From: an uncultured Bacteroidaceae bacterium
Lineage (GTDB): Bacteria; CAIWAD01
Direction: 5' to 3'
NCBI GenBank assembly: GCA_964345075.1
Contig: CAYFPS010000001.1
Coordinates: 133,726-197,725, forward strand
Length of the DNA stretch: 64,000 nt
Both the position numbers and the translations under genes were made by a program. Below the pieces are notes generated by a model. That model searched no databases and was not told the origin of the DNA. It saw only the letters and a program-made list of their open reading frames with translations. Shown here one piece after another: positions 1 to 64,000 of the stretch. Every line of letters starts with the position of its first letter. Position 1 is the stretch's first letter.

Positions 1-2
1 AT

Positions 3-938
3 TTTATCGCACTGGTTGAGCGACATGGCATTGCCTATGTGGAAAAGGATGCCGGCAAGCTCTTCTGCAAGGGAAGCTCGCGGGCCATCCTCGAGTTGTT
101 GCTTGGGGAGTTAAAGCAGGCCGGTGCCAGCCTGCAAACCGGAACAAAGATCCTGTCTGTATCACGGGATGGACAGGGCTTTTCCGTCAAGACCGACAGC
201 AAAATCTATCGCTGCGATTCGCTTGTTGTTGCCACCGGCGGCCTTTCCCTGCCCCGGCTTGGCGCAAGCTCATTCGGTCTGGATCTGGCAGTGCAGATGG
301 GTCACACACTTGTATCACAATCGCCCGGCCTTGTTCCATTTACCCTTTCACCCGACAAGCGCGAACTTGCCGCGGAACTGGCCGGTGTTTCTCTTTCCGT
401 GCGTGTTACATCTCCTGCCCGCACGGTCAGGGACAGTCTGCTCTTCACGCACCGGGGGCTTAGCGGGCCAGCTATTCTTCAGCTATCGAATTACTGGCAG
501 CCGGGCGAAACCATTCGGATCAACCTGCTGCCCGAGCATGAGCTGCCCGGCCTGTTTGAGACCTGGGCCCGCCAACAGCCTGCACGCAATGTGGGCAGCC
601 TGCTTGCAGGAATCCTGCCGCGCCGTGTGATACAACGAATGGTTGATCAGAAGATTCGTGATACACGGATATCTTCGCTTGGTGAGAAGGAGATGAAGGA
701 TCTGTCGCAGAGCCTTTCCAACTGGACCCTGCTGCCTGCCGGAACCGAGGGCTATCGCACGGCTGAAGTGATGCGAGGCGGCGTCAACTGCAACGAGCTT
801 TCGCAAAAGACCATGGAGAGCCGGCTGGTGCCGGGGCTTTACTTCATCGGAGAAGTTGTGGATGTAACCGGACAGCTGGGTGGCTACAATTTTCAGTGGG
901 CCTGGGCTTCGGGCTGGTCTGCCGGGCAGGTTGTCTGA
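3..938 (+). CDS. NAD(P)/FAD-dependent oxidoreductase of the HI0933 (YhiN / aminoacetone oxidase) family. The 5' end lies upstream of the window.
   Basis: The open frame runs from the window edge and reads ...IAYVEKDAGKLFCKGSSRAILELL...VVATGGLSLP... The C-terminal HI0933 beta-domain motifs are present (GLYFIGEVVDVTGQLGGYNFQWAWASGWSAG). Confidence 0.8.
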   Translation, partial: FIALVERHGIAYVEKDAGKLFCKGSSRAILELLLGELKQAGASLQTGTKILSVSRDGQGFSVKTDSKIYRCDSLVVATGGLSLPRLGASSFGLDLAVQMGHTLVSQSPGLVPFTLSPDKRELAAELAGVSLSVRVTSPARTVRDSLLFTHRGLSGPAILQLSNYWQPGETIRINLLPEHELPGLFETWARQQPARNVGSLLAGILPRRVIQRMVDQKIRDTRISSLGEKEMKDLSQSLSNWTLLPAGTEGYRTAEVMRGGVNCNELSQKTMESRLVPGLYFIGEVVDVTGQLGGYNFQWAWASGWSAGQVV

Positions 939-1430
939 TCAGCGGTTTCGGCTGTCCAGCAGAATGGTCACAGGGCCGTCATTCCTGGCCTCTATTTCCA
1001 TGTGATCTCCAAAAACGCCCGTCGCCACGCGCAAACCACGCGCCCTTAGTCCGTCAATCAATCGTTCATAGAGCGGAATCGCCTTCTCGGGATCCGCGGC
1101 CTGCCCGTAGTGCGGACGCCGGCCCTTGCGCGTATCCGCGTGCAGCGTGAACTGACTCACCACAAGCAGCTCGCCCGCCTGGCTGGCCGGGCCCGTTGCG
1201 TGCTCGCCCGCCTCGGCCATGTTCATCTCTTCAAGCGAGAGATTCATCACGCCCGCGGCATCGGGAAAGAGCCGCAGCTCAGGCAGCTTCTTCACCAGAA
1301 AATCCACATCCGCGAATTCGTCATCCCGCGAGATGCCCACCAGAACAAAATGCCCGCGCCCGATTTCCTCCTGATGCCCACTTGAACAGCGAATCGTGGC
1401 GCGTGATACACGCTGAATGACAGCCCTCAT
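939..1430 (-). CDS. dtd: D-aminoacyl-tRNA deacylase
   Basis: Conserved N-terminus MRAVIQRVSRA...GRGHFVLVGISRDD...SQFTL and about 160 aa length. The start is the internal ATG at 1430; the annotated ORF extends to 1511. Confidence 0.85.
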   Translation of the reverse strand: MRAVIQRVSRATIRCSSGHQEEIGRGHFVLVGISRDDEFADVDFLVKKLPELRLFPDAAGVMNLSLEEMNMAEAGEHATGPASQAGELLVVSQFTLHADTRKGRRPHYGQAADPEKAIPLYERLIDGLRARGLRVATGVFGDHMEIEARNDGPVTILLDSRNR

Positions 1431-1527
1431 GCATGCTCCTTGATTGAAGGAGCAATATGGGATTTGCCACAGGCCTGAAAAAAGCCCGACCGAAAGGCCG
1501 GGCTTGTGCAATCTGCTTTCAGGCTGC

Positions 1528-2709
1528 CTAGACAGGCACGACCATCTTGCCTTCCAGCTCCTCTACCTCGGGATCGATGGCAATGGCGCGAGAGAGCTCG
1601 TCGTCATCCTGCAGATAGCTGCCGGATGAGATCTCTTCGTAGTCATCCAGCCAGCGCGCTTCTGGATTGCGCTTCAACACAAGCAGACGGCCCGTGTTGG
1701 AAGGATCGGCCGCGCGGTGATAGCGCAGGAGGGTTTCGCGCTCCGTGACACAAAGCACTTCGATCTTGCCGGTATGGTGTGACATGCAGAGCCTGGCGCG
1801 TCGGCCAAGCCCGCTGCAGATGGCGCGCGCGCGGTCGAAGATCTCGTAGCTCTGCTCAATGGGCACAGAGTAAGTATCGTTGCCCAGCGTCGGGCGGCAG
1901 ACGAAGAGATAATAGGGCGGAATGCCGGCAAAGGCCAGACGGTCGAAAAGCTCGGCCAGCACCAGCGGGTCGTCATTCACGCCGGCAATCAGGGGTGTCT
2001 GGTTGACCGTAACAACACCGGCCTTCTGCAGCATGCTCATACCCTGAATCGCGATGTCGGTCAGCTCGCGCGGATGATTGAAGTGCGCCATCACATAGAT
2101 CTTCTGATCGTCGCGACTGTGGCGACCCAGCACCTCCAGCAGTTGCGGGTCTTCCGTGATACGATACGGGTTGAAGACCGGCATCTTGCTGCCAATGCGA
2201 ATGATGCGCACATGCGGAATCTCGCGCAGCTTCGTCAGGATGGCGTCCAGCTTGGCCGTGGACATCAGGAGCGGATCGCCTCCCGTCAGCAGCACATTGC
2301 TGATCTCGCTGTGTTCGCGAATGTAGTCGAGGCCCTGTGATACATCGCGCACGACCTCGTCGTTATCATCCAGAAAGAGCCGCTTGCGAAAGCAGAAGCG
2401 GCAATAGGCGCCGCAGACACCATTGACCAGCAGGAGGGCCGTGTCAAAGTATTTGTGCTCCAGTCCGGGCACGCGCGTGTAGGTTTCTTCGCCGGAGGCA
2501 TCCAGCTCGCCCCATTCGGACATTTCCTCGGCATCGGGCATGACAATGCGGCGGATGGGATCCTCGGGATCATTCCAGTCGATCAGGCCCTGATAGTAGG
2601 TGTTTGAACGAAACACGAAACGTTCCGCTACGGGGGCCAGGGCCGCGCGCTCTTCGGCACTCAGCTCAGGGACCTGTTCAAGTCGGGTGATGTACTTCGG
2701 CTTGCTCAT
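1528..2709 (-). CDS. kamA: KamA-family radical SAM protein (lysine 2,3-aminomutase-like)
   Basis: CGAYCRFCFRK radical-SAM CxxxCxxC motif, and conserved KamA blocks (LLTGGDPL, RIIRIGSKMPVFNPYRI). The start MSKPKYI at 2709 is preceded by GGAGGAAACC. Confidence 0.8.
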   Translation of the reverse strand: MSKPKYITRLEQVPELSAEERAALAPVAERFVFRSNTYYQGLIDWNDPEDPIRRIVMPDAEEMSEWGELDASGEETYTRVPGLEHKYFDTALLLVNGVCGAYCRFCFRKRLFLDDNDEVVRDVSQGLDYIREHSEISNVLLTGGDPLLMSTAKLDAILTKLREIPHVRIIRIGSKMPVFNPYRITEDPQLLEVLGRHSRDDQKIYVMAHFNHPRELTDIAIQGMSMLQKAGVVTVNQTPLIAGVNDDPLVLAELFDRLAFAGIPPYYLFVCRPTLGNDTYSVPIEQSYEIFDRARAICSGLGRRARLCMSHHTGKIEVLCVTERETLLRYHRAADPSNTGRLLVLKRNPEARWLDDYEEISSGSYLQDDDELSRAIAIDPEVEELEGKMVVPV

Positions 2710-2958
2710 GGTTTCCTCCGTTATTTGAGACACGTCTGTGAGGCTCGGGCGGAAACCGGGCATGGCAGGTTAACTGCCGGTCGGTGGCAAGGTGGCGCTG
2801 GATTCCTCTTGGATCACCCGTGATACATGGAGTGACGCTTTGCGTCTACACGGAACGCGATGGAAGCACCGGGGTGGCTTCAAACCTTGCAAATCGGCTC
2901 GCCGAGCCGCTTGAAACAGCCTCTGAGAGTAACAAAGGGGCTCCAGAGTGGCAAACAG

Positions 2959-4143: not shown

Positions 4144-4496
4144 GCTCTCTTCCTGTGATACAAAAAGCCCCGGCGCGCGTACGGATTCCGGCCAGCCGAG
4201 CTGGTCATGAATGTCCTCAGTACCGTCGGGGAGTGTCAATCAAGTCTGCAAGGTAGGGATTTGGCGGCTCAATGGGCGGGATTATTGACCTAGAGTGCTA
4301 TAATGGTCCAAATAAACCGGAAAGTGTAACCCATCCTCCCGGCTCGTTCACATGTTTTCTGGGCAAACAGCCCGCCACGGCTCGCGAAGAGTTGAAGTTC
4401 AGACCTTAGCAAGCATAGAGCACAAAACATGGTGTCAAGTTCATCTCGAATGAGAAAGAAATCAGTGCTGCAAGAGTCTTCGATTGCGCAAAGTCA

Positions 4497-7400
4497 ATGC
4501 TGCATTCTGTAACACTTAGAGCTTACATATCTTTCTTAACGGTATTCCTGGGCTTCTCCACCGCTTACCCCTTAGAGCATTATAGAGACATGATTGGCTA
4601 TAACAATGAATTCTATGGGGCAAATTTATTTGGCATCGATGAGTTTGAGTATTGTGGGACTGTATATGACTTTACAAAAGACGTTGGGAACTGGACGTGT
4701 ATTGGCGTGAGTTGGCATGTTGCTGAATCTGGCAACAGTAATCTGACTGGCGATTTTCATTTGGAGCGATATGATGCGTTGCTTGACAGCGCTCTCGCCA
4801 GAGATCTCAAGGTTGTAATGATTCTTTCAGGCACTCCATATTTGGCATCGATCCCTGAATTTAGAGGCGATGAAGAGCTTTACTCAACTTCAGCGATTTA
4901 TCTTGAGACTGGGCCTTCCGGAGACACTCTCGCCGTTGAAAGGTGGAGAGAGTTTTGTGCAGAAGTTGCTGGGCGGTATTATCCGCGTGTTAAGCACTTT
5001 CAAATAGGAAATGAGGTCAACTACCAAGAGTATTATCGCTACGCGGATGAGACATTCACAGCAGTCTCTGGCCACTATCTACCGTATTCCGACTATCTTG
5101 CGATGGGTTCTCATGCAATGCAGGAGATTGGAGATGCCATTGCTCAAGGCGTTGATTCACTGGTTAACAAACCTCTCAAGATTCTCGCAGGAGGGTTGTT
5201 TGCTTCGACAGAAACAGAGTATTTCCAAACAGGCACACCCAGGATCGTTGCTGCTGTCGACTATTTAGAATCATTGTATGACTATGCTAGCAACAACACA
5301 TTAGATCCTGATGAGTACTTTGATATTGTATCCTACCATCCATATGGTCGATTTGAGCTTGAGCTTTTCACGAATAATGTTTTGCTAGAACATGAGCAAA
5401 ACACCTTCCTCGAAACTGAAAACATACATCAGTTGATGGTGGCCAGAGGAGATTCGGAAAAAGAAATCTGGGGGACAGAATGTGGTCCGCCATTGGAATG
5501 TGCCGCTGCGGCGTCGCAAATGACACTGGAGACTCAAGCACTTTGGGCAGACCAGTATTTGCAAATGTGGACCAATTGGACTTTTACGGGACCTTTGTTC
5601 TGGTGGTGTCTTCGGGAGCAAGTTCGCCATAATCCTGATTCCGACAGCCTGATGAATTGCTGGGGAGCAATGGATTCGGATTGGACGTTTCGTCCCGCCT
5701 ATCACGTCTGGCATGCCTGGGGCAACTCGAGTACGGAACGAATGGATCTTCACATCGGAGAAGGCCCCGACTTCTTGTATCACGCGTGGGACGATGCGTT
5801 TGAACACCGTTTTCAGCTGGAAGCAGCAAATAGAGACACGGTTCGGGTCTACATTCATGCCTCCGATTCCCCAATCTTCGTGCAATCGCCCACTGTTATT
5901 GGTGTGGGGCCAACATCTATCGAGGTCATCGGGGTTACGGGATCGCCTTCCGAGATGGAGGAGGCGCTGGCAGGACAGGTTGTGCTTGAAGCCGTGGGAA
6001 ACCTTGGGCATCTCCCTTTTCTGACAGTTCTTGATTCTGCGACAAATCTCACGCTTGAAAATCTGACGCTTCAGGGCTTTGGTGAAGGAGAAGACCTGAA
6101 TTACCGCGAGCTGATGACTTTTGGCCACTGTGTTCATTTTTCAGGGAAGGCGCTGCACATTGATAATTGCCGCTTCCTTGATAACGGGCTTGCCTCTTTC
6201 AATAGCGAGCATGGACTCTGGGATGGCTTTGGGCCTGTTCTTTTCGTAGACGGCTCAACCAGTTGCCTGCATGTTGAGAACAGCCTCTTTGTGGGAAATG
6301 AGTCCGGCTGTCAGCCGGGTGCCTGTCTTGTTGCCCTGAATGCGGACAGCCTGACCTTGCTGTCCACTACGTTTCACGACAATACGATCAACATCTATTA
6401 TCCGGGAAGAAACGAAGATGCCGAATGCGGCCCCGCTATTGATCACGCTGTTTCCGGTCATGCCATCCATGTGATTCAGGCGCAGCATACTGCCATTAAA
6501 GGCTGCCTGTTTACAGGCGAGTATCCCGGCGGAGAATGGGATTCCGGCCGGCTTCCTCAGTTCGACATTCAGGCTGGTAGCGGCCAGGTGAGCTTCAGCG
6601 CCACGGATCAGGATGGGTGGGCAAGTGATCAGCAAGCCTTTCCAGAAGCCTTGGGGAATGTGGTTGTGCCTCATGCAGAATCGGAAGTGCGCATTGGCTA
6701 TGTGGATGCTGACAACCGTGACTTCCGCCTTCGCCAGAACAGTGAACTGCTGGACAGGGGGGATCCCAACCCGGAAAAGAAAAACTTCGATCTTACACGC
6801 TCGGACATCGGCTGGACACCCAACTATCAGGTGATTGAACTCGGAGCTTATGCGCAAGGCCCCTTGTCTGCTGGATTCTACGAGGTCAGCGGCCCGGTTT
6901 GCGCAATCAATCATGACATTGCAGCTGGAGCCGTGATTCGTGTGCACGAGGGTAGCTTGCTACAAATCCTCACCTCCGCTGGCAGCAATCGGCGTATCGG
7001 GGATCTTGACGGCCCGCGTACAGCCATTGTCGGACGTGGTTCACAAGTCGGAGCGCCGGCTGCTGGAATTGAGCTGCTGAATGTGTCGAGCGATAGCAGC
7101 CTGCTCTTGGAAGGTGTGTTGTTCAACTACGCTCCACGCTCTTATGACCAGAGCGGACATGGTGCTTCCCTTCATATCTACGACAGTGGCCATGCGGACA
7201 TCCTCTCCGTGTCTTTTGACCACGTCAGCTTTGAAAACTACGTGAATGTGCCTGATCCCGATGGCCAAGCTTATGACGGGAGTCTCTTGTTTCGTGACTG
7301 CGAGGCTACGCTTTCCGGCCTGGATGTGGGAGATGCAAACGGGGATCGATACGGTATCGGGCAACTTCAATTGGTCAATTCCAATGTGCGTGTGGAGGCC

Positions 7401-8804: not shown

Positions 8805-8832
8805 GAGACAAGAGCCAACTGCTGGAGCCACT

Positions 8833-11319
8833 ATGAATCAAAGTATCTGGGTTCTTTTGCTTGCCCTTCAAGGAATGGCTGCCGTAATTCATGTGCCGGA
8901 GGACCAACCCACCGTTCAGCTGGGTCTTGATGCCACGGCCCCAGGTGATACGGTGCTTGTTGCGCGAGGCACCTACCAGGAGCTGCTCACAAGTCCCGAT
9001 CACAGCTTCACACTCATCTCGAACTTCCCATTTACTCAAGACTCGATGGATATTGTGGAGACGGTGTTGGACGGAGACTATGGAGGCTGCATTCTTTTCA
9101 TCGCATTGAATGATGGCGAAACGGCCAAAATTCAAGGCTTCACCTTTCAACACGGAATGGGAGCTTATGAAGGCAGCTATTATCGAATCACAGGGGGTGC
9201 GATTCAATTCTTCGTTCCTGTGTTGGAGGAACGTGCTTCGAATTTGGTCTTGATGGACTGTGTATTCCAAGAAAATAGTTCCGTTTCCGGCGCAAGTGTG
9301 ATTTACGTTGGGGGTGAGGGTCCATGGCCAGCTTATGGTTCAATGAACTTCTCACGGCTGCACTTTGAAGATTGCGAGGATCCCGAAGAATCCAATTATG
9401 CAAGCATTGAGATTCGCGCCCATTCTTCAGAACAGTTGTTTGAGGACTGGATATTTGATGCCGGCACATCTTCGGTTGATCCCGTTCGATTGAATCTGGA
9501 TCCGGACTCGCTCGTTGTCCGGCGGATTACACTGATCAACGGGAATGGAGGAGCTTTCGGTTGTACCATTGTACCCACTGTTGAACATGGTGCCCTGTTT
9601 GAGAATCTCCGAACGGCCTCGTTCAACGGATTGCTTGGAACACGAATCAGCATGGGTATAGGTGCATCAAACAGGGAAAACCGAGCAGCAATCTGCACGA
9701 TTCGCAACATAGAGGTGGATGGTACAGGGTGGGGCGGATTGTTTGTCAATGGGAGTGAGGCTGGACCAAGGCTCCATTTCGATGGCCTTCACCTGCACCA
9801 TATCACGGGGCCTGGGGTTCTAGGTGCTTTTGGAGGCGATGCAGGTGCTGCTTTACACGGAGAACTTCGAAACCTGCATGTGCATCACAATGTGGTGGGT
9901 GACAGTGTCAGTCTCTTCGGCAGTATTGTAGCAGAATTTGGGTTGAGTATCTACGATGCTCACATCCATGACAACACCGTGATCATTCCACCTCACCCGA
10001 ATCCAGGTGGAACAGGTGCTGGTGGGAATCATCTGGACGGACCGATCCTGTCGACCTTTGGGCCTCATGTGGATCAGGCTCTTCACTACGAAAACATCAC
10101 ACTGGAAAACAATACGGTGATTGATTTGGACGATTACAGTGATCCCTTTCCAGAACATGCATACAGGGAGAACATCGCACGTGAGTTTCATTTTGTGCTA
10201 GCTTGGGATGACACCACGTACGTGAAGAATATCACCATTCGCCATAGCAGACAGCCCAACCATTGCCCTGAGATCTACATTCCAGAAAACTTCGAGAAAA
10301 GCAATCCTGGTTATGTTATGGGGCAATATGCGCGGCATCTCGTTGCTGAGAATATCCTCCTTGAGGATTGTGACGATGGTGGTCTGCTGGCTGGAGGTGC
10401 ATCTGTTTCTCTGGACAATGTGGTCTTGAGAAATGTTGCTCGTGTCGGGCTTATCATGGGCGCAGGGATTGCCCGAAATGTGCTGATTGACGGAACAGTA
10501 GCGAAGGACGACTGGCTGCATCTTACACCAGGCTTTGAGAATCTGACGTACCAGGCCGCGATCTTCAAGACAGACGTTGCCAACGTCTTTGAAAACCTCA
10601 CCATCACGAATTGTGACAGCATGCGGGCTCTGATTCAGGAGCATTCGCTTAACGGGAGCCAGGCACTTGTGTTCCGCAATGCAATCATTGCAGGCAACAC
10701 GTACGACTACCTGTTCGAAGACATCGATGCCTCAAGAATCACCTGGGAGAACTGCTTTGTGCAGGAAGCCGTTGCTGGTGATGGGAACATCATCGGCCAG
10801 GATCCTCTGTTTGATCCAGAGTTTGGACCCCCTTTTCTATCACCAGAGTCACCCTGTATCGATGCTGGAAATCCAGAATCTGTCTACAACGATGTCGAAG
10901 ATGCTGACAATCCAGGTTGGGCCAGGTGGCCTTCCCAGGGCGGATTGCGAAATGACATAGGTTTTTTCGGTGGGCCGGGCGTGGACAGCCTGGCAGTCGA
11001 TTGGCTGCCTGTAATGCCCCAGGATCCTGTGATACAGCCAAAGCATTTTGTGCTTGGCGATCCTTACCCGAACCCCTTCAATCCTGTAACACGGATACCC
11101 TTCACACTTGAAAGCACCTCCCGTGTGACAATGCGAGTCTATAATCTACGAGGTCAGCTTGTCCGGCATGTGGGGTCATCGCTTTTTGGCGGCAGCTACT
11201 ACACGGCGGGCAGTCACGAGCTTGAGCTGGACGGTAGCCGATTGGCCAGCGGCGTGTATGTTGTGGAGATTCAGGCAGGGGAGCTTCGGGAAGTGCGGAA
11301 GGTTGTGCTGCTTAGATGA
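8833..11319 (+). CDS. Secreted right-handed beta-helix repeat protein with T9SS C-terminal sorting domain
   Basis: Signal peptide MNQSIWVLLLALQGMAAV. Beta-helix repeats (GNGGAFGCTI, IHDNTVII, LENNTVI). C-terminus DPYPNPFNPVTRIPFTLESTSRVTMRVYNLRGQLV...GVYVVEIQAGELREVRKVVLLR. Low-GC body. Confidence 0.75.
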   Translation: MNQSIWVLLLALQGMAAVIHVPEDQPTVQLGLDATAPGDTVLVARGTYQELLTSPDHSFTLISNFPFTQDSMDIVETVLDGDYGGCILFIALNDGETAKIQGFTFQHGMGAYEGSYYRITGGAIQFFVPVLEERASNLVLMDCVFQENSSVSGASVIYVGGEGPWPAYGSMNFSRLHFEDCEDPEESNYASIEIRAHSSEQLFEDWIFDAGTSSVDPVRLNLDPDSLVVRRITLINGNGGAFGCTIVPTVEHGALFENLRTASFNGLLGTRISMGIGASNRENRAAICTIRNIEVDGTGWGGLFVNGSEAGPRLHFDGLHLHHITGPGVLGAFGGDAGAALHGELRNLHVHHNVVGDSVSLFGSIVAEFGLSIYDAHIHDNTVIIPPHPNPGGTGAGGNHLDGPILSTFGPHVDQALHYENITLENNTVIDLDDYSDPFPEHAYRENIAREFHFVLAWDDTTYVKNITIRHSRQPNHCPEIYIPENFEKSNPGYVMGQYARHLVAENILLEDCDDGGLLAGGASVSLDNVVLRNVARVGLIMGAGIARNVLIDGTVAKDDWLHLTPGFENLTYQAAIFKTDVANVFENLTITNCDSMRALIQEHSLNGSQALVFRNAIIAGNTYDYLFEDIDASRITWENCFVQEAVAGDGNIIGQDPLFDPEFGPPFLSPESPCIDAGNPESVYNDVEDADNPGWARWPSQGGLRNDIGFFGGPGVDSLAVDWLPVMPQDPVIQPKHFVLGDPYPNPFNPVTRIPFTLESTSRVTMRVYNLRGQLVRHVGSSLFGGSYYTAGSHELELDGSRLASGVYVVEIQAGELREVRKVVLLR

Positions 11320-12893: not shown

Positions 12894-13193
12894 ATGTCAG
12901 ATCTCTTTTCGATGAGTCTGGAAGACAAGCTTTACCGCACGCGCTACGAACCGGATAGCGATCATCCGCACATTGAAGTAGACAACAGCATCTGCACGGG
13001 CTGCACGGGCAAGCCCTGTGTCCTGCTCTGCCCCGCGCATGTCTACAAGAAGGATCCGGCGCGGGATGGTGAAGTGCTTGTATCACACGACAACTGCCTT
13101 GAGTGCGGCACCTGTGTGCAGGTTTGCCCCACCGAGTCACTCAAATGGAAATACCCCGAAGGCGGCATGGGTGTCAAGTATCGCTTTGGATAG
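12894..13193 (+). CDS. fixX: Ferredoxin-like protein FixX
   Basis: 99 aa with two Cys clusters, CTGCTGKPCVLLCP and CLECGTCVQVCP. Sits directly after fixC. Confidence 0.85.
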   Translation: MSDLFSMSLEDKLYRTRYEPDSDHPHIEVDNSICTGCTGKPCVLLCPAHVYKKDPARDGEVLVSHDNCLECGTCVQVCPTESLKWKYPEGGMGVKYRFG

Positions 13194-13997: not shown

Positions 13998-14006
13998 GAG
14001 ATCACG

Positions 14007-14945: not shown

Positions 14946-14957
14946 AAAGGAACAGCC

Positions 14958-16652: not shown

Positions 16653-16676
16653 TCGCAGACTCAGATTCCAAGCAAA

Positions 16677-16706: not shown

Positions 16707-16765
16707 GTAAGGCTGGGGTGACAAATCAACCTTCGCTGTTCCCGAGAGAGTTCCCGACAGCAAAA

Positions 16766-17374: not shown

Positions 17375-17413
17375 TTCAGGCTCCCGAATATTCTGTGATA
17401 CAAATGGATCGGC

Positions 17414-39074: not shown

Positions 39075-39089
39075 GCTTAACCTCCTTGC

Positions 39090-54093: not shown

Positions 54094-56588
54094 AGAAGTG
54101 CCTGCGGATCCATGTCAAGCACCAGGCTTAAGCCGGCACGCTTGAGCTTTTTCTCGAAGTGCTCGCGCAATTCCCGGGCAAGGCCGCGAATCGCCTTGCC
54201 CGACGGGTCACGGTCTCGAAGCACGCGAAGTAAAAAGTGATAACGAAACTCGCGCCGGACCATGCGCACAGGCGCTGGTCCCGGCTGCAAGGCTGCAACC
54301 AGAGCGTGTCCGCTGGCCTTGCCGTAGAGCTGACGAATGGCGTGCTCCGCGTGGTCTTCTTTTTCGCTCTTGCAAAGAATGCGGCAAAGTCTGGCGGCCG
54401 GCGGGTAGCCGGCAATCAACCTGTTCTCCAATTCCATGGCGGCAAAGCCCAGATAATCATGGCCTGCCGCATGCTGAAAGACTTCATGGTCGGGCTGCGA
54501 AGATTGAACAAGCACACGGCCGGGTTTTTCACCGCGCCCGCTGCGCCCGGCCAGCTGACTGATCAACTGAAAGGTCCACTCTCTGGCGCGAAAATCCTGC
54601 AGGTTGATCTCCGTGTCCGCCTGTATCACGGCGGCCAGGGTGACGCCCGGGAAGTCCAGACCCTTGGCGACGCCCTGAGTGCCAAGCAGGAGGTCGTATT
54701 GCCCGCTGTTGAAATCCCTCACCATGCGAACATAGGCTCCGCGCCGGGAGGTTGTATCACGGTCCATGCGCAGTATTCGCACGCCGGGAAAGGCTTCGGC
54801 CAGTTGCTCCTCGACCTTTTGCGTGCCAGCGCCCTGACGGTTATGCCTGGTGGACCCGCAGGCCACACAGGGCTTTTCAGCAGAAAGCTCTGCCCCGCAG
54901 AGATGACAATGACAGCGGTCTGTCACACGGTGCCATACTAGACTGACATCGCAGCGCGGACAACTTTTTACTTCACCGCAATCCATGCACTGAATCCACG
55001 GGCTGTGTCCACGCCGGTTCTGCAAAATGATCGCCTGCTCGCCAGCATCAATCGTTTCGCGCAGTGCCTTCAACAGGCCGTCCCCCAACAGGTGAACGGT
55101 CTCGCCCCGGCCGGCCATGCGCTCGTGCTCTTCACGCATGTTGATCAACTCAACTCTTGGGAGCGGGCGATCTGAAACTCTGCAGGGCAATTCGAGCAGC
55201 GAGTAGCGGCCAGCCTGCACATTGGCCCAGGACTCGAGCGATGGCGTTGCGCTGCCCATCAAGACTGGAACACCCAGCTGGTGAGCGCGCATCACGGCGG
55301 CATCGCGCGCATGATAGCGTGGAACCGGCTCCATTTGCTTGTAGGAGCTCTCGTGCTCTTCATCAATAATGATCAGGCCCAGGCCTTCAAGTGGGGCAAA
55401 CAGGCTCGAACGCGCGCCAACCACAACCCTTAGCTCGCCCCGGCGCACACCCTGCCAGATGTCAAAGCGCTGCTGGCTTGTCAGTCGGCTGTGTATCACG
55501 GCAACACGCCTTCCCAGAAAACCCTGGAAGCGGGCGACAATTTGCGGCGTCAGGGCAATTTCCGGAACAAGCACAAGCACGCTGCGACCACGATCCAGCG
55601 CTCGCCGGGCAAGTTCCAGATAGACCTGCGTTTTACCGCTTCCGGTAACACCGCGGAGCAGAAAAGCCTTGTAACTTCCTCCGCGACCCTTGCTGTCGGG
55701 GATGTGTTGTGATACATGATCAAAGACGAATTGCTGCGCCGGGTTGAGCTCGATCTCTCGTACACTGGCATCTCGATCATACTCTTCTTCAGGAAGAGCC
55801 AGTTCACTGGACTCTTCCAGTAGCCCCTTCTCCAGCAGCCCCTTGATTACCGCGGCACTGTATCCTTCTGCCAGCAGCTCTTGCCGGTCTACCGGTGCGC
55901 CCTCCCCCGCCAGATACTCGAGCAGGGCCAGTTGTCTGGGCGCGCGCCGGCCAAGGGAGCTCAGCCCCTTGCGGTGCTCGGGCGTACCGGGCGCGTGGGC
56001 CAGTGCAATCCGGCGAACACGGCTTTCCCTTCGTGTGGCACTCTCGAGATTGTCCACTCGCGAGAGAAAGCCCGCGTTTGTCAGCTCGGCCAGATCGTGA
56101 TGACAGGCCGCGTTCAGTTCCTGCAGAATCCAGGATCGTGATACAACACCCCGATCCATGACCAGGCGCATGATCGCTTCACGCCGGGGCGAAAGCCGTA
56201 GCGGCTTGCGCAGGACCGTGTCCGGCTGGACTTCGTAGTGGCAGTTGACGGTGCCGTTGATCCCCGGTGGCAGCGCGGCCTTTAACACTTCACCCAGCGA
56301 ACACAGGTAGAGTTCTGCCAGTTGGCGACAAAAGCGAATCTGGTTCTGGGATATCAGCGGCTCTTCATCCAGAACATCAAGCAGGGGCTTGAGCTTGTGT
56401 CCTGTCGCGGCCTGTTCCTGAGGCTCCAGCGCAATCAGGTAACCCACCATCTGCCTGCGCCCAAAAGGCACAAACACGCGCGTACCGGGAAGGGCGGCAG
56501 CCTGTAGTGTTTCGGGCACGCTGTAGCTGTAGAGCTTGTCCAGTGGCAAGGGCAGTGCGACACGCGCAACAAGCGGGCACAGATCCAT
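54090..56588 (-). CDS. priA: Primosomal protein N' (replication restart helicase PriA)
   Basis: Walker A GVTGSGKTQVY, DEEH box, Cys4 zinc finger (CMDCG...CPRC..., C.C.LCG). 832 aa. Confidence 0.9.
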   Translation of the reverse strand: MDLCPLVARVALPLPLDKLYSYSVPETLQAAALPGTRVFVPFGRRQMVGYLIALEPQEQAATGHKLKPLLDVLDEEPLISQNQIRFCRQLAELYLCSLGEVLKAALPPGINGTVNCHYEVQPDTVLRKPLRLSPRREAIMRLVMDRGVVSRSWILQELNAACHHDLAELTNAGFLSRVDNLESATRRESRVRRIALAHAPGTPEHRKGLSSLGRRAPRQLALLEYLAGEGAPVDRQELLAEGYSAAVIKGLLEKGLLEESSELALPEEEYDRDASVREIELNPAQQFVFDHVSQHIPDSKGRGGSYKAFLLRGVTGSGKTQVYLELARRALDRGRSVLVLVPEIALTPQIVARFQGFLGRRVAVIHSRLTSQQRFDIWQGVRRGELRVVVGARSSLFAPLEGLGLIIIDEEHESSYKQMEPVPRYHARDAAVMRAHQLGVPVLMGSATPSLESWANVQAGRYSLLELPCRVSDRPLPRVELINMREEHERMAGRGETVHLLGDGLLKALRETIDAGEQAIILQNRRGHSPWIQCMDCGEVKSCPRCDVSLVWHRVTDRCHCHLCGAELSAEKPCVACGSTRHNRQGAGTQKVEEQLAEAFPGVRILRMDRDTTSRRGAYVRMVRDFNSGQYDLLLGTQGVAKGLDFPGVTLAAVIQADTEINLQDFRAREWTFQLISQLAGRSGRGEKPGRVLVQSSQPDHEVFQHAAGHDYLGFAAMELENRLIAGYPPAARLCRILCKSEKEDHAEHAIRQLYGKASGHALVAALQPGPAPVRMVRREFRYHFLLRVLRDRDPSGKAIRGLARELREHFEKKLKRAGLSLVLDMDPQALL

Positions 56589-58726
56589 CAGTTTTCTACC
56601 CGACTAAGTGCGCGCGCATGATCTACCGTAAGAACCTGACGCAGCGCGGGAACCGTATCCAGCGCGGCATCCCGTGATACAAGGTCAAAGGCTGCATCAC
56701 GCGCCTGCACCAGAAGATCCACATCGCGCATGATGTCGGCCAGCTTGAATTCGGGCAGCCCACTCTGTCGTGTTCCAAAAAAATCGCCCGTGCCGCGCAT
56801 ACGCAAATCGAACTCGGCAATCTCGAAGCCGTCCTGACTTTGTGCCATCATCTCCAGGCGCGCCTTACCCTCCTGGGAGAGCGCCTTGCCGGCCACCAGA
56901 ATACACCAGGATTTGGCGCTGCCCCTGCCAACGCGGCCTCTTAACTGATGAAGCTGGGCCAGACCAAAGCGCTCGGCCTGCTCCACGACCATCAGTGTGG
57001 CATTGGGGTTGTCCACACCAACTTCGATGACTGTGGTCGAGACCAGCACCTGTGTATCACCGGCCAGAAAGCGCTGCATGACGGCGTCCTTTTCCGGACC
57101 CTTCATTCGTCCGTGCAGAAGCTCCATGCGGCAATCGGCCAGCCATTCGCCCTTCAGCTCCTCATAGGCGATTTCGGCGGCGCGCAAGTCCATCTTGGCC
57201 GACTCTTCGATGAGCGGATAGACGATATAAGCCTGCGCGCCCTTCTCAACCTGTTCCCGCACAAACTGAAAGATCTGGGCCCGCTTTGTCTCACGGCGCC
57301 AGGCTGTGGTAATCGGCTGCCTGCCCGGAGGCAGCTCGCGGATGATCGAAATGTCCATGTCCCCGTAGCTGACAATCGCCAGTGTGCGTGGAATGGGTGT
57401 TGCCGTCATCACCAGCGTGTCCAGCTCGGGCGATTTGGCCCTTAAGCGAGCGCGCTGCTCGACACCAAAACGGTGCTGCTCGTCGATAATGGCCAACCCC
57501 AGCGAGTGGAAGTTCACCGCATCCTGAATAAGCGCGTGGGTGCCGATCACAATCTGTGACCAGCCGGATTCGATTTCCTGCTGAGCCTGCCGCTTCAGTG
57601 CCGCCGTGCGCGATCCGGTCAGGAGCGTGACCCTTAAGCCCATTTCCTGCGCCAGACGGTCGATGTTTCGAAAATGCTGCTCTGCCAGAATTTCCGTGGG
57701 CGCCATCAGGGCCGCCTGATGGCCGGTCTCCACGGCAAGGAGCATGGCGCAGAGCGCAACCATGGTCTTGCCCGAGCCGACATCACCCTGAAGTAGACGG
57801 TTCATGGGAGCCGGGCTGCGCATGTCGCCCAGAATTTCATCCAGTGAACGCTGCTGATCGCCGGTTAGCGTAAATGGCAGGCGCGAGAGCAAATCACGAA
57901 TCAGCGCGCCGTCACCCGTAAAGCGCAGACCCTTTTCCGTCTGGCCAATCTGGGACTTGCGCCAGGCCAGCATCAGCTCCAGCATGAAAAATTCCTGAAA
58001 CTTGATGCGGCGACGGGCGCGATCAACCTCTTCCAGACTTTCACCCAGATGGACATCGTGCATGGCCGTGTCCAGATCGGTCAGATGGTAACGCTCGCGG
58101 ATCTCGATCGGCAGCGGATCTTCAAAGCGGGGAGCCTGCCTTTCGTAAAGCAGACGAATGATCTTGTGCAGCCCGCGGCTGTCCAGCCAGGCCTTGCGCA
58201 GCTCTTCAGTTCCCGGGTAAATCGGCACAAGCTGCCCGCGGTAGGCTAGCGCAGGGCCCTCCGACAGCTCCACTTCTTCCGGCAACTTTTCCACAGCCGG
58301 GTGCTGAATCTGCCAGCCGCGAAACTGCCCCGGCTTGCCTGAGGCTGCAATCACATCGCCTGTCGCCAGGAACTTCTTGATCCAGTGGAGACGATTGAAC
58401 CAGACAAGGCGAATCTGCCCGCTACCATCATCCAGAACAGCCTCAAACCAGCTTCGTTTGCGAAAACCTTTTGCCTCCGTGCGAATCACGCGCCCCACGA
58501 GCGTAATCTCGCCAAGCCCCTCATTCAGTTCAGCAACACGGGTAACCGAAGTGCGATCCAGATAACGACGAGGGTAGGTTTCCAGCAAGTCTCGCAAGGT
58601 GCAAACGCCATGATCGGCAAGGACTTTTGCCTTTGCAGGACCAACACCCTTCAGGTAGGTCAGGTCTTCTCCAAGCTGGGATAGTGGGGAATTCACAGGG
58701 GGTTGATCCTCACCAAAGCTAAACAA
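56588..58726 (-). CDS. recG: ATP-dependent DNA helicase RecG
   Basis: Wedge domain, GDVGSGKT Walker A, DEQH. 712 aa. Confidence 0.9.
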
Positions 58727-61020: not shown

Positions 61021-62421
61021 TCATGTCGCGGAAACCAGGCTGTGCAGCGGCCAGATTCCATACCAGTACAGCAGGCCCGCCAAACCGGAAGGGTGAAAAA
61101 TGGCCGTCTGATGAAGACGGGACATTCCATCCCCGAGATCTTCCACCTCGAATTCCAGCCAGGCCTTGCCCGGCACTTTCATTTCGGCGACAAGGCGCAG
61201 ACGCCCGGGAGCATCCACCAATTCGACCCGCCAGAAATCAAGGGCGTCTCCAGCTCGCAGCCGGCCGTCCCGGGGTCTTCCCCGCCGCATGCCAACACCC
61301 CCAACCAGAAGATCAAGCAAGCCGCGCAGCTGCCAGAGCAGGTTCCAGGCATACCAGCCATTGCGGCCGCCAATGTTGTAGACGGGCTGAAAGAGCTTTT
61401 CCGGCGGACAGTTCACATCCAGACTGCGGGTATCGATCAGGCGACTGCCTTTGCGCAGGCCACCCCAGGGCTGGCCGGGACTCCCCGATGAAGAAAGCGA
61501 ATCCGACCACCTGGTTGCCGCAAAACTGGTTTCTTCCCGCTCCAGCGCCAGCCGGATGGCCTCGCGGGCGCCCATTGGTGATACATGAAAGTCCGCCGTG
61601 CTCTCCGGCCGTGTTACAACAGAAGGGTGGCGAATGCGCTCAATCAACCAGCGGCCAACACGGGCATAAAGCGGTGTGACAAGCCCGAGCCACAGGCTGC
61701 TCAGGCGGGGACTCAAAAAGGGAACAGGCAGCATGAAGCGCTTGAGCCCGCGGGCCTCGGCATAGGCCATGACCAGGTCGCCATAGGAGAGGACTTCCGT
61801 GCCTCCAATCTCCACCACGCGCCCACCCTCAGCCTCGACATGTGCCGCTTCACGCAGATAGGCCAGCAGATCACGGATTGCAATAGGCTGTGCCTTGACC
61901 TTGACCCAGGAGGGCGTGACCAAAACGGGCAGCTTTTCGGCAAGCGACCGCACCATTTCAAAAGAAAGACTGCCTGATCCGATTACAATGCTGGCGCGCA
62001 GCTCAATCAGGGGCGGCCCGTATTGGCGCAGAATTCTGCCTGTCTCCAGACGGCTTGCCATGTGATCGGACAAACTGTCACCCTCGCGGGCAAGACCACC
62101 GAGATAGATTATCCGTGATACACCCGCGCGTTTTGCTTCCCGGGCAAAGGCCCGGGCGGCCTGCCGATCCTGTTCGGCAAAGGCCTCGCCTGACCCCATG
62201 GAGTGGATCAGGTAATAAGCCACCTCAACTCCGTCCAGCGCGCGCTGAAGACTTCCCGTATCACGGGCATCGCCTTCAACAACCTCGACATCTGCCTCAA
62301 TGCGTGAGAGCAGAAAGTCCGGTCTGCGCGCCATGACCCGCAGCTGATGACCGTCCTGAACGAGAAGGGGCAGCAATCTGCCGCCCACATAGCCCGTTGC
62401 GCCTGTCAGCAAAACCTTCAC
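61021..62421 (-). CDS. SDR-family NAD(P)-binding protein fused to a DUF2867 domain
   Basis: MKVLLTGATGYVGGRLL Rossmann motif. C-terminal DUF2867-like region. 466 aa. Adjacent to the photolyase gene. Confidence 0.7.
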   Translation of the reverse strand: MKVLLTGATGYVGGRLLPLLVQDGHQLRVMARRPDFLLSRIEADVEVVEGDARDTGSLQRALDGVEVAYYLIHSMGSGEAFAEQDRQAARAFAREAKRAGVSRIIYLGGLAREGDSLSDHMASRLETGRILRQYGPPLIELRASIVIGSGSLSFEMVRSLAEKLPVLVTPSWVKVKAQPIAIRDLLAYLREAAHVEAEGGRVVEIGGTEVLSYGDLVMAYAEARGLKRFMLPVPFLSPRLSSLWLGLVTPLYARVGRWLIERIRHPSVVTRPESTADFHVSPMGAREAIRLALEREETSFAATRWSDSLSSSGSPGQPWGGLRKGSRLIDTRSLDVNCPPEKLFQPVYNIGGRNGWYAWNLLWQLRGLLDLLVGGVGMRRGRPRDGRLRAGDALDFWRVELVDAPGRLRLVAEMKVPGKAWLEFEVEDLGDGMSRLHQTAIFHPSGLAGLLYWYGIWPLHSLVSAT

Positions 62422-63827
62422 CGCCCCCCCTGTCGCATGATCTGATATGCCTCAAGCGCCTGCTGGCGCGCTTCTGCGTGATTGACAATGGGAGCTGGAT
62501 AGTTCCTTGGTGTGAAGGCCCCCGCCAGCCAGGGTTGGTGAATCAACTTGCCGGAAAGCCCGGCAAGTTCTGGCAACCAGCGGCGCAGATACTGCCCGTC
62601 AGGGTCGAGCTTCTCCGACTGTGATACAGGGTTGAAAATGCGGAAATAGGGGGCAGCATCCGCTCCGCAGCCAGCCACCCACTGCCAGCCCAGCGTGTTG
62701 TTGGCAAGATCCGCATCAACCAGTGTATCCCAAAACCAGCGAGCGCCTGCCTGCCAGGGGATAAAGAGATCCTTGACCAGAAAGCTGGCCACAATCATGC
62801 GGACACGATTGTGCATCCAGCCGGTCGTCCACAGTTCGCGCATACCAGCGTCGACAATCGGGTAGCCGGTTTTGCCCTTCTCCCAGGCAATGCGGCCGGG
62901 CTCCGCTCCCCGTATGGGAAAACGACCGAAATCCTCCTTGAGTGGTTGATTGACGGTATGCGGGTAGTGATACAAAAGGTGCCAGGCGAAATCGCGCCAG
63001 GCCAGTTGACGAATCCAGGCCTCTGCGCTTGCCGCATGAGCCCCGCCCGCCATTTCCAGCAAGCGATGCGGACTGATTTCACCAAACACCAGATGGGGTG
63101 AAAGCCGCGATGTCCCGGCCAGAGCCGGACGATCCCGAGTGTCCGGGTAGGCCGCGACAGGGTAATCGAGAAAGGCGCAGGCCTTGTCCCAGGCGGCCTT
63201 CTCGCCCGGCTGCCAGGCCTCATAAAAAGCCTTGTCCCAGCCGCGGGTGGGCAGCAGCCGCAGGGCATCCAGGCGTAGGGCCTCCGGCAGACGTTCAGGT
63301 AGTGGAATCCGTTTCGGAGCGGGTTCCAGCAATCCCGGACCAACCTTCTCCCGCAGGGCCTTCCAGAAGGGAGTGAACACACGATATGGTTTTCCCGATC
63401 CGGTTTCGATTTTCCACGGCTCCATCAAAACGTTACCGGGTTTACTTGTAACCCCGATGCCCGCCTCTGACAGGCTTCGCTTCAGGCCTGTATCACGCTC
63501 GATCAGATCCGGCTCGTAGCGGCGATTCCAGCAGACCGCTTGCGCGCCCGTTTGCCTGATGATGCACATAAGGACATCAAGCACCGGGCCGTGAAAAAGA
63601 AAAAGCCGCGAGCCGCAGTCCTTAAGAGAGGCATCCAGCGCGGCAAGGGAGTGATGAAGCCACCAGCGCGAGGCCCCGCCTTCCCGCGAAAGGGCCTCCT
63701 CTTTCGGCGAATGAATGTATACGGGCAGAACTGGAGCGCCGGTGGACAATGCATGGCTGAGTGCAGGATTGTCGGCCAGCCTGAGGTCGCGCCGGAACCA
63801 GAGAATCAGAGGGGCTTTGCTGGACAA
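62418..63827 (-). CDS. phr: Deoxyribodipyrimidine photolyase (class I CPD photolyase / cryptochrome family)
   Basis: LILWFRRDLRLADNPAL N-terminus. FAD-binding C-terminal block (WQWVAGCGADAAPYFRIFNP). Confidence 0.9.
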   Translation of the reverse strand: MSSKAPLILWFRRDLRLADNPALSHALSTGAPVLPVYIHSPKEEALSREGGASRWWLHHSLAALDASLKDCGSRLFLFHGPVLDVLMCIIRQTGAQAVCWNRRYEPDLIERDTGLKRSLSEAGIGVTSKPGNVLMEPWKIETGSGKPYRVFTPFWKALREKVGPGLLEPAPKRIPLPERLPEALRLDALRLLPTRGWDKAFYEAWQPGEKAAWDKACAFLDYPVAAYPDTRDRPALAGTSRLSPHLVFGEISPHRLLEMAGGAHAASAEAWIRQLAWRDFAWHLLYHYPHTVNQPLKEDFGRFPIRGAEPGRIAWEKGKTGYPIVDAGMRELWTTGWMHNRVRMIVASFLVKDLFIPWQAGARWFWDTLVDADLANNTLGWQWVAGCGADAAPYFRIFNPVSQSEKLDPDGQYLRRWLPELAGLSGKLIHQPWLAGAFTPRNYPAPIVNHAEARQQALEAYQIMRQGGR

Positions 63828-63833
63828 TCAGTG

Positions 63834-64000
63834 CGCCTTTCTTTGGGCAAACAACTCAAACAACCAACCAATCAGGCCGCTCAGCATCAAGACAGGCGCG
63901 ATCAACACCGCCAGAAAAAAGGACACGACCGCAATCGCCTGCAGCGGCCAGACCAGAAGTCCCGGCAAGGTCGGCATACCGGCAACGGCTTCACCGACAT
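63834..64000 (-). CDS. C-terminal end of a hydrophobic (membrane) protein. The 5' end lies beyond the window.
   Basis: Open minus-strand frame to the window edge, ending ...LIGWLFELFAQRKAH*. Hydrophobic residues. Confidence 0.3.

Follow-up and report, generated by a model that had tools for sequence, protein, structure and literature searches.

The subject of this analysis is a 64-kb stretch of DNA (the window: 64,000 nucleotides, positions 133,726 to 197,725 of contig CAYFPS010000001.1, assembly GCA_964345075.1) from an uncultivated bacterium that, judged by its protein matches, belongs to the Delongbacteria (FCB group: Fibrobacteres, Chlorobi and Bacteroidetes). The window is strewn with one asymmetric octamer, GTGATACA, which occurs 67 times (on the + strand 37 times as GTGATACA and 30 times as TGTATCAC), or 1.05 times per kb, and which has been written into the genes as a DNA-level feature, at the expense of both codon choice and amino-acid sequence. 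Taken together, its features match one known class only, that of the unskewed hyper-abundant self-signature words. The explanation that we favour, with a probability of roughly 45%, is that GTGATACA represents a self-signature word of the kind known as DNA uptake sequence (DUS), uptake signal sequence (USS) or highly iterated palindrome 1 (HIP1), which would be kept by a drive at the DNA level and would probably be linked to natural transformation; that link is ranked first by analogy with DUS/USS and HIP1.

The abundance of the word had been noticed in a first-pass annotation made from the sequence alone, and it proved to be real and stronger than first noted. An exact search raises the 64 copies counted there (34 + 30) to 67 (37 + 30), leaves most of the listed positions in place and moves others by 1-10 bases (157 to 158, 18340 to 18350, 23713 to 23712 and 23926 to 23916). 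Three null models were used for comparison: dinucleotide-preserving shuffles of the window (n = 100) contained 0.71 ± 0.86 copies (largest 4), an order-3 Markov model, trained after masking of the word family, predicted 1.1 copies, and a synonymous-codon shuffle over all genes (the gene set covers 94.5% of the window) gave 2.64 ± 1.56 copies (largest 9) versus the 65 observed in genes. In the codon shuffle all proteins stay as they are and so does the overall codon usage, which the word itself has already inflated. Because the nulls expect these different numbers, the enrichment varies from 25- to 95-fold with the null chosen (about 60-fold in the first-pass annotation); the GC content of about 62% given there was too high (measured: 58.2%). 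GTGATACA is the top 8-mer of the window, the second (34 copies) being a codon-driven, GC-rich word. In unrelated bacteria it was found 27 times in 160 loci (2.18 Mb), and in the GC-matched subset of these (54-63% GC; 44 loci, 585 kb) 4 times, i.e. 0.007 per kb. The outgroup baseline was drawn from relatives in a DnaE scan (≤ 45% identity among the matches listed) and from a metagenome scan with a DUF4139 alignment, in which the matches listed comprised one short member of the clade (L092) and the 79 outgroups that were used.

In the sequences that surround the copies no position holds more than 0.21 bit; A is weakly avoided at -1/-2 and weakly preferred at +1, and extension to 9-12 bases yields no consensus. 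The flanks are unique and the word is therefore free-standing, not the core of a dispersed repeat; repeats of the repetitive extragenic palindrome (REP) or miniature inverted-repeat transposable element (MITE) type share their flanks and are mostly intergenic, whereas 97% of the GTGATACA copies lie in genes. A 7.9-kb contig (L081) from an independent metagenome assembly in the European Nucleotide Archive (ERZ930065) is 99.89% identical to window positions 13512-21445 and shares all 10 copies found there, none of the 9 differences falling in GTGATACA or its near-matches, and the pattern is therefore not an assembly artefact. The idea that the pattern is a dispersed repeat, a by-product of protein motifs or an artefact is thus refuted by the tests that were run; a longer repeat and an artefact had been named in the first-pass annotation as fatal to its proposal. 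Protein motifs can indeed generate such words, since TGTCACA in two GC-rich relatives (L083 and L085) stems from CXXCH haem-binding motifs and GGTGATACAGG in viral contigs from collagen-like Gly-Asp-Thr repeats; here, however, the word stands in four frames, on both strands and in about 40 unrelated genes, a shuffle that leaves the proteins intact retains 2.6 copies versus 65, and the word recurs in independent assemblies from other projects and in other species.

The placement of the word inside genes shows how it is written (Table 1). Sixty-five of the 67 copies are intragenic, 28 on the sense and 37 on the antisense strand, and they are distributed over four of the five open frames: x-Val-Ser-x (xx-T GTA TCA C-xx) in 28 copies, [G/R/C]-Asp-Thr (nGT GAT ACA) in 16, Val-Ile-Gln/His (GTG ATA CAn) in 12 and [L/M/V]-Tyr-His (nTG TAT CAC) in 9. 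The remaining sense frame is closed by a TGA, and the Cys-Ile-Thr frame holds no copy, a single such peptide being present in the gene set of the window. The word is found at 64 of the 99 peptide sites that could carry it synonymously (about 65%), among them 9 of 9 [LMV]YH sites and 11 of 16 VI[QH] sites, and it draws on codons that are otherwise rare: ATA makes up 5% of the Ile codons, GTA 9% of those for Val and TCA 10% of those for Ser. The use of several frames on coding and template strand, the forcing of rare codons and a selection or drive that targets DNA rather than protein had all been proposed at first reading, and all three agree with these figures and with the codon shuffle. Along the genes the copies are uniformly placed (Kolmogorov-Smirnov p = 0.87), with no bias to the gene ends.

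The cost becomes visible by comparison with relatives, for which the syntenic recG-priA region was used (22 kb per lineage). For the conserved VIH and RDT peptides of PriA, the window and the word-rich L082 use GTGATACAC and CGTGATACA, and word-free relatives use GTCATCCAC, GTGGTCCAC, CGCGACACC and similar. In RecG, GDT in the window corresponds to GE[IL], GRL or GDV in six relatives and LVSR to LVER or LVAR, and in a peptidase of the MA family LYH corresponds to xF/YH; the replacements in RecG and the peptidase fall at variable residues. Per 1000 residues, the peptides encoded by the word are 2-4 times commoner in word-rich loci than in word-free relatives. For USS and DUS, a rough doubling of tripeptide frequencies and a location of the copies at poorly conserved residues have been described (Findlay and Redfield, PMC2817400).

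As had been remarked at the outset, the two orientations are balanced, unlike Chi (37:30, binomial p = 0.46), and they are mixed in every 8-kb bin. This bears on the explanation that GTGATACA is a Chi-like signal, which an enzyme of the RecBCD/AddAB type would read on one strand and which would be selected in both orientations to protect or recombine the cell's own linear DNA. Such a signal would share with the Chi of E. coli its asymmetry and its length of 8 bases, the asymmetry would suggest single-strand or directional reading, and the word is enriched in the core and rarer in an atypical block. More generally, Chi and the FtsK-orienting polar sequences (KOPS) or architecture imparting sequences (AIMS) are, like GTGATACA, asymmetric words of 7-8 bases that are enriched genome-wide, and they are directionally read; unlike GTGATACA, they are strongly skewed with replication and far less enriched, and the window is free of local skew. 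All Chi sequences known to us are skewed toward the leading strand. The split observed here (a test of local skew only), an enrichment and a cost to the proteome far above those of Chi, and a word that is not G-rich make a Chi-like signal very unlikely.

The one-base variants outline what is recognised. Changes at positions 1, 2, 3 and 7 are as rare as expected or rarer (positions 1 and 2 together: 2 observed versus 6.4 expected), and TGATACA has a G in front of it in 67 of 68 cases. Enriched are the changes A to T at position 4 (15 versus 0.6 expected), T to C at position 5 (9 versus 1.5), A to G at position 6 (8 versus 2.6) and A to G at position 8 (8 versus 1.3). With positions 1, 2, 3 and 7 strict and positions 4, 5, 6 and 8 looser, the core is therefore GTG..AC(A), with a preference for AT in the centre. 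The centre variants number 15 (GTGTTACA), 14 (GTGTGACA), 9 (GTGACACA), 9 (GTGTCACA), 4 (GTGAGACA) and 4 (GTGTAACA), raw counts that are in part too high, since GTGTCACA, GTGACACA and similar words can share one site on opposite strands; GTGATACG has 8 copies. Two of these variants had been seen before, and only their numbers change (GTGTTACA from 13 to 15, GTGATACG from 5 to 8).

The sharpness of the first positions is also what a mutational origin would produce: GTGATACA would then be the functionless outcome of biased repair or gene conversion, by a nuclease of the very-short-patch (VSP) type together with a strand-specific methyltransferase (Type IIG/III-like or orphan). The scarcity of neighbours at positions 1-2, the G before TGATACA in 67 of 68 cases, the conversion of about 65% of the synonymously accessible sites and the equal density in and between genes would all fit, and HIP1 is connected with two orphan methyltransferases (PMC4390886). 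The same model was argued against for HIP1 by Xu et al. (PMC5861425), the window holds no gene for a methyltransferase or a Vsr-like protein, and the core persists across lineages at 62-66% RecG identity. We therefore consider this origin improbable, the more so with regard to two points of general background: repair biases of the Vsr/Dcm type in E. coli shift word frequencies modestly, not 25- to 95-fold, and restriction-modification specificities usually differ between strains. A guide site for mismatch repair, which the first-pass annotation had listed among the options, is unlikely as well, because the word is, as stated there, not palindromic and such a site does not symmetrically mark both parental strands.

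The relatives, where the first-pass annotation had looked for a check, carry the word too. The 22-kb regions of L082 (on the closed 3.72-Mb contig ctg38548l of ERZ21862645; RecG 65% identical, 58% GC) and of its sister L172 (about 80% nucleotide identity to L082; 57% GC) contain 19 and 16 exact copies (0.72-0.86 per kb), accompanied by GTGACACA (9) and GTGTTACA (7) in the former and by GTGCTACA (7) and GTGACACA (6) in the latter. L090 (RecG 64%, 63% GC) has 5 exact copies versus 0.28 expected; L088 (GCA_030429345.1; RecG 61%, 63% GC) has 2 exact copies and 31 of the form GTGNNACA with a diffuse centre, versus 4.4 expected and 5-8 for other arrangements of the half-words; and L083, L085 and L086 (RecG 67-69%, 69% GC) have no exact copy and no real enrichment. 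Over the seven lineages the density drops with rising GC. The preferred centres differ as well: AT and then TT in the window; AT, AC and TT in L082; AT, CT and AC in L172; diffuse in L088. A GC-rich dialect TGTSACA in L083 and L085 was considered and rejected, its copies clustering in multihaem cytochrome genes, in CXXCH codons (TGT CAC). In a neighbour-joining tree of RecG the word-bearing L088, L082/L172 and L090 branch below the lineage of the window, which is the sister of the word-free group with 69% GC. The simplest reading of this single-gene tree, with 22 kb per lineage, would be that the word is an old trait that was lost in GC-rich lineages.

Between the two sisters the sites appear to be in motion. 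L082 and L172 share 4 of the 12 aligned sites at which at least one of them has the word, and 6 of the 8 unshared sites are one base apart (e.g. GTGACACA, GTGATACG, GTGATCCA). The numbers are small, with a retention of 4/9 and 4/7 (44-57%) versus 21.5% for arbitrary aligned 8-mers. Retention is above this baseline and most losses are one base away, and thus copies would be continually lost and re-made; a balance between their decay and a force that makes them suits the data better than sites fixed for a function, as far as such small numbers can indicate. Between the window and L082, 2 of 5 PriA sites are common, both on conserved peptides.

Within the window the placement is close to random. 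The spacing is near Poisson and slightly clumped (coefficient of variation of the gaps 1.2 versus 0.99 at random, p = 0.046), and a longest gap of 5.3 kb is within chance (p = 0.21), so that the gaps stressed in the first-pass annotation lose their weight. The low-GC island also noted there, the block 4497-11319 (49-55% GC), has 2 copies versus 7.1 expected (p = 0.02; this is one block). It encodes two very large cargo proteins (1435 and 828 aa) of the type IX secretion system (T9SS), of which the C-terminal T9SS sorting domain is the sole recognisable part.

In another explanation, GTGATACA would be the binding site of an abundant chromosome-organising or nucleoid-associated protein, kept for chromosome structure and without a role in uptake. 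Coding and non-coding densities that are about equal, the uniform placement along genes, the same core in deep lineages and the sites common to diverged genomes would suit such a protein, and HIP1 has been read likewise (PMC5861425). A viral contig (L286) carries palindromes TGTATCAC-GTGATACA, and these are clustered, so helix-turn-helix proteins that read the word probably exist. Per-site selection over thousands of sites would be very weak, yet codons are overridden and amino acids changed; the 44-57% versus 21.5% conservation between L082 and L172, with losses of mostly one base, looks more like turnover than like fixed sites; three related lineages do without the word; and the window has no palindromic full sites and no parS. 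We therefore regard a structural role as rather unlikely, albeit the strongest of the alternatives. As to parS itself, we take GTGATACA to be one base from the parS half-site GTGAAACA and to contain the half-site GTGATA of the lambda operator, presumably a lead only. The half-sites of parS and the lambda operator form palindromic pairs in few clustered copies, whereas GTGATACA consists of single half-sites scattered at one per kb; GTGAAACA occurs once in the window, and no parS, a 16-base palindrome, was found there within 3 mismatches.

The resemblance to uptake sequences is what places the preferred self-signature reading first. The DUS of Neisseriaceae and the USS of Pasteurellaceae (jointly DNA uptake enhancing sequences, DUES) are proven uptake signals that are present in the hundreds to thousands, the DUS receptor in Neisseria being the minor pilin ComP. 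Like GTGATACA, they are short asymmetric words that occur about once per kb on both strands, are written into genes at a cost in codons and amino acids with the encoded peptides doubled or more, turn over by single bases and come as variants around a strict core in related lineages; they are also rarer in atypical (probably acquired) DNA, for which the one low-GC block here may be a parallel. The class proposed in the first-pass annotation, a DNA uptake sequence or other genome-wide signature word, is the right one: how dense the word is, its balance between the strands, its cost to the proteome and its variants among lineages agree with DUS/USS, as does, for the one block, its rarity in atypical DNA. 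HIP1 (GCGATCGC) of cyanobacteria is likewise an octamer, 15- to 300-fold over-represented and present up to about once per gene, within and between genes and in several frames, and conserved at the level of the phylum with loss in some lineages. Unlike GTGATACA, which is non-palindromic and without GATC or CGATCG, HIP1 is palindromic, holds both of these and is read by two orphan methyltransferases; a 10-90 kb periodicity and conservation of sites have also been reported for it. Next to the tie with these methyltransferases (PMC4390886) and the structural role argued by Xu, Lawrence and Durand (PMC5861425), a methylation-dependent boost of natural transformation and a connection with DNA-transfer genes have been described for HIP1 (bioRxiv 10.1101/2024.09.10.611283; 10.64898/2026.06.24.733823).

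The following would then hold. A conserved DNA-binding component of the cell would read GTG-W-N-ACA, with GTGATACA as its best site, and this reader would most probably act in natural transformation, in the binding, import or recombination of DNA from outside. Fragments and alleles that bear the word would consequently be transmitted more often, and mutations that create or improve copies would spread (molecular drive), until the decay of copies through mutation and selection on the encoded proteins hold them in check. That the reader is a component of uptake or transformation is inferred solely by analogy.

Several observations weigh against the uptake interpretation. For DUS/USS an intergenic enrichment is known, with about half of the copies in terminators and often in inverted pairs (bioRxiv 10.1101/2025.10.24.684340). 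GTGATACA is an unrelated word of 8 bases only in another phylum, and unlike DUS/USS it is not enriched between genes (the non-coding copies, 2/67 in the window, 4/19 in L082 and 2/16 in L172, are about equal to the non-coding share), does not sit in terminators, forms no inverted pairs or palindromic doublets in the 64-kb window and has no extended flanking consensus as in USS. It also shows, in this sample, no preference for genes of DNA maintenance (priA 5, dnaE 4, topA and xerC 0), and its spacing, near-random or slightly clumped, is no more even than chance would give. Genes for a methyltransferase, a Vsr-like protein, a pilin or pilus, uptake functions or ComEC, ComEA and DprA are absent from the 64-kb window. 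An intracellular drive or selection for protein binding would also yield every sequence-level feature seen, and to our knowledge natural transformation has not been described in the uncultivated Delongbacteria. Our confidence is limited because the word is not enriched in terminators or between genes and because the search for uptake machinery covered the 64 kb alone.

A more specific claim, that the Delongbacteria possess in GTGATACA an uptake-type word for self-recognition, with GTG-N2-ACA as its strict core, with dialects among the lineages and in a new, intragenic and non-terminator mode, is more tentative than the general reading. If true, it would be the first such word outside the Proteobacteria and the palindromic HIP1 of cyanobacteria, the Delongbacteria would be capable of natural transformation and would favour their own DNA, and self-preferring competence could be read straight from metagenome-assembled genomes. 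Full-text searches on the word, on Delongbacteria and on surveys of uptake sequences brought up no published account of GTGATACA. What is new with respect to DUS/USS and HIP1 is the phylum, the asymmetric word and the almost purely intragenic placement; the phenomenon itself is known. Hyper-abundant unskewed words are known in very few groups (Neisseriaceae, Pasteurellaceae, cyanobacteria), each of them informative on how own and foreign DNA are told apart, and a third unrelated instance, in an uncultivated phylum, makes the phenomenon wider than thought. The word is a strong one, with about two thirds of the accessible sites recoded and with amino acids changed, and it offers a natural comparison for the debated HIP1 question. 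It provides an 8-base probe for finding the reader protein, for which GTCATACA and GTGATAGA can serve as contrast words: the strict positions 1, 2, 3 and 7 should count in recognition, positions 4-5 less. Word-rich and word-free sister lineages suit phylogenetic profiling for the responsible gene, an approach already applied to HIP1 (PGLS), and in genomes of Delongbacteria the word can help in practice with binning and with the detection of foreign DNA.

Table 1. The 67 exact copies of GTGATACA from the exact search, with strand, host coding sequence (CDS) and encoded peptide; the last line gives the sites with another centre.
Position	Strand	Placement	Host gene	Peptide	Remarks
158..165	-	antisense	CDS 3-938(+)	SVSR	
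311..318	-	antisense	CDS 3-938(+)	LVSQ	
627..634	+	sense	CDS 3-938(+)	VIQ	
658..665	+	sense	CDS 3-938(+)	RDT	
1403..1410	+	antisense	CDS 939-1511(-)	RVSR	
2337..2344	+	antisense	CDS 1528-2763(-)	DVSQ	
2820..2827	+	intergenic			
4155..4162	+	antisense	CDS 2959-4239(-)	FVSQ	
5776..5783	-	antisense	CDS 4497-8804(+)	LYH	low-GC block
11029..11036	+	sense	CDS 8833-11319(+)	VIQ	low-GC block
13079..13086	-	antisense	CDS 12894-13193(+)	LVSH	
13495..13502	+	sense	CDS 13221-13997(+)	GDT	
13552..13559	+	sense	CDS 13221-13997(+)	GDT	
14225..14232	-	antisense	CDS 14007-14945(+)	PVSQ	
14500..14507	+	sense	CDS 14007-14945(+)	GDT	
14876..14883	-	antisense	CDS 14007-14945(+)	RVSH	
17143..17150	+	antisense	CDS 16766-17374(-)	DVSQ	
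17395..17402	+	intergenic			between dnaE and DUF975 gene
18101..18108	-	sense	dnaE 17414-20854(-)	GDT	
18350..18357	-	sense	dnaE 17414-20854(-)	GDT	
19043..19050	-	sense	dnaE 17414-20854(-)	GDT	
20032..20039	+	antisense	dnaE 17414-20854(-)	DVSL	
21547..21554	-	antisense	CDS 20964-22007(+)	MYH	
21625..21632	-	antisense	CDS 20964-22007(+)	LYH	
21739..21746	+	sense	CDS 20964-22007(+)	GDT	
22053..22060	-	sense	recN 22008-23612(-)	RDT	
23459..23466	+	antisense	recN 22008-23612(-)	RVSR	
23712..23719	-	sense	CDS 23622-25952(-)	RDT	
23916..23923	-	sense	CDS 23622-25952(-)	CDT	
24713..24720	+	antisense	CDS 23622-25952(-)	DVSR	
24867..24874	+	antisense	CDS 23622-25952(-)	LYH	
27229..27236	-	sense	CDS 26442-27656(-)	VIQ	
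27467..27474	+	antisense	CDS 26442-27656(-)	CVSL	
28176..28183	+	antisense	CDS 27670-28371(-)	VVSR	
28460..28467	+	antisense	CDS 28317-29543(-)	IVSP	
28855..28862	-	sense	CDS 28317-29543(-)	VIQ	
30281..30288	-	antisense	CDS 29700-30503(+)	LVSH	
30623..30630	+	sense	patatin gene 30503-31372(+)	VIQ	
31545..31552	+	first possible start (GTG)	recQ-like ORF 31545-33005(+)		may precede true start
31730..31737	-	antisense	CDS 31545-33005(+)	VVSP	
32326..32333	-	antisense	CDS 31545-33005(+)	VYH	
34149..34156	-	antisense	CDS 33388-34212(+)	LVSQ	
34389..34396	+	antisense	CDS 34297-37524(-)	NVSL	
34667..34674	-	sense	CDS 34297-37524(-)	VIH	
36962..36969	-	sense	CDS 34297-37524(-)	VIH	
37850..37857	+	antisense	CDS 37526-38026(-)	LYH	
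41392..41399	-	sense	CDS 39859-42069(-)	GDT	
43006..43013	+	sense	CDS 42121-43029(+)	VIQ	
47693..47700	-	antisense	CDS 47320-48294(+)	LYH	
48454..48461	+	sense	CDS 48294-48686(+)	CDT	
49564..49571	-	sense	CDS 49170-49631(-)	VIQ	
49838..49845	+	antisense	CDS 49641-50153(-)	VVSR	
50090..50097	+	antisense	CDS 49641-50153(-)	AVSQ	
50272..50279	+	antisense	CDS 50150-51316(-)	LVSR	
53965..53972	+	antisense	CDS 53143-54093(-)	LYH	xF/YH in relatives
54622..54629	-	sense	priA 54090-56588(-)	VIQ	
54753..54760	-	sense	priA	RDT, conserved	word in L082 and L088, CGCGACACC in word-free relatives
55492..55499	-	sense	priA	VIH, conserved	word in L082, GTCATCCAC in L083
55709..55716	+	antisense	priA	HVSQ	
56138..56145	+	antisense	priA	VVSR	
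56674..56681	+	antisense	recG 56588-58726(-)	LVSR	LVER/LVAR in relatives
57053..57060	-	sense	recG	GDT	GEI/GEL in relatives
61578..61585	+	antisense	CDS 61021-62421(-)	HVSP	
62115..62122	+	antisense	CDS 61021-62421(-)	GVSR	
62621..62628	+	antisense	photolyase gene 62418-63827(-)	PVSQ	
62967..62974	+	antisense	photolyase gene	LYH	
63489..63496	-	sense	photolyase gene	RDT	
1..64000	.				GTGNNACA sites with another centre, n = 49 after collapse of overlapping words, besides the 67 exact sites

The assignment of the host to the Delongbacteria derives from its RecG protein, for which the databases gave one identical match, one of 96% and then a clade of 62-69% identity that includes proteins named Candidatus Delongbacteria, followed at about 50% by other phyla of the FCB group; one retrieved contig is labelled Delongbacteria_CAIWAD01. 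Exact-protein look-ups for recN and P0001 gave no match. The gene content is that of an ordinary chromosome and includes: dnaE, recN, a recQ-like helicase gene, smg-topA-xerC, priA-recG and a photolyase gene, a riboflavin operon, genes for an electron-transfer flavoprotein and acyl-CoA dehydrogenase, components of a phosphotransferase system and several proteins with a T9SS sorting domain.

Some stretches of the window are poor in exact copies. The smg (DUF494)-topA-xerC cluster (43097-46949) has none in 3.9 kb. The open reading frame (ORF) at 42121-43029, directly upstream, was considered as dprA, after the arrangement in Bacillus (we take the position just upstream of smg-topA-xerC to be that of dprA in some bacteria), and was rejected, having no Pfam match even at E = 1. 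Exact copies are also scarce in the stretch 39166-42069, where a gene for a toxin of the MazF/PemK type (39166-39513, -) adjoins the gene of a 736-aa protein (39859-42069, -) in which only Helicase_C_3 is recognisable; perhaps the two form a small module of defence or addiction. The adenosine deaminase gene (38028-39215, -) has no exact copy and six centre-variant counts (GTGTGACA, GTGTTACA, GTGACACA, GTGTCACA), partly overlapping, which may be due to chance or hint at exchange with a lineage in which another variant is in use. A large candidate secreted nuclease is encoded at 34297-37524 (-); besides two nuclease domains (PLD/NucT-like) it has a lamin-tail domain, DUF5689 and a T9SS sorting tail. 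If the host handles external DNA, a DNase outside the cell would be of interest.

Two further elements of the window concern RNA or DNA structure. A flavin mononucleotide riboswitch (Rfam RF00050, 109 bits) was found at 29496-29620 (-), upstream of ribD, ribE, ribBA and ribH; it overlaps the first-start ORF call of ribD, and the true start of ribD therefore lies further downstream. A perfect 44-nt hairpin (33389-33432; GTGCCAGACAGGTGCCAGACAC / GTGTCTGGCACCTGTCTGGCAC; RNA fold -44 kcal/mol, z = -10) has a shorter related copy about 330 bp upstream (33040-33072), both between the recQ-like and the cytidylate-kinase-like genes. Possible identities are a REP-like element, a terminator or the ends of a small insertion.

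Repeated words of other kinds were met in the comparison loci. In L088 (171-18315) another word, CACGGTGA, has 9 copies in 22 kb and is thus about 17-fold enriched. Its copies lie on either strand and in genes of both orientations, their flanks are unique, and it may be a second signature word of that lineage or a codon effect. The multihaem cytochrome clusters whose CXXCH codons mimic an enrichment of TGTCACA adjoin recG (L083, 166-4677; L085, 508-6065). L172 carries, at 19089-20817, 13 near-identical tandem repeats of 144 bp within a very large TIR-NACHT-CHAT-TPR gene, and the outgroup metagenome contig L099 has clustered, REP-like short palindromes CACGGACT-nnn-AGTCCGTG at 3762-6682. A scan of viral contigs for paired copies recovered no phage with dispersed copies, and yielded collagen-like repeats, tandem repeats and one operator-like cluster. 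The latter, in L286 (60% GC, 9879-10235), consists of the clustered palindromes and of TGTATCA direct repeats in about 350 bp of non-coding DNA, looks like an operator or iterons and has as its half-site the same 8-mer as the word of the Delongbacteria.

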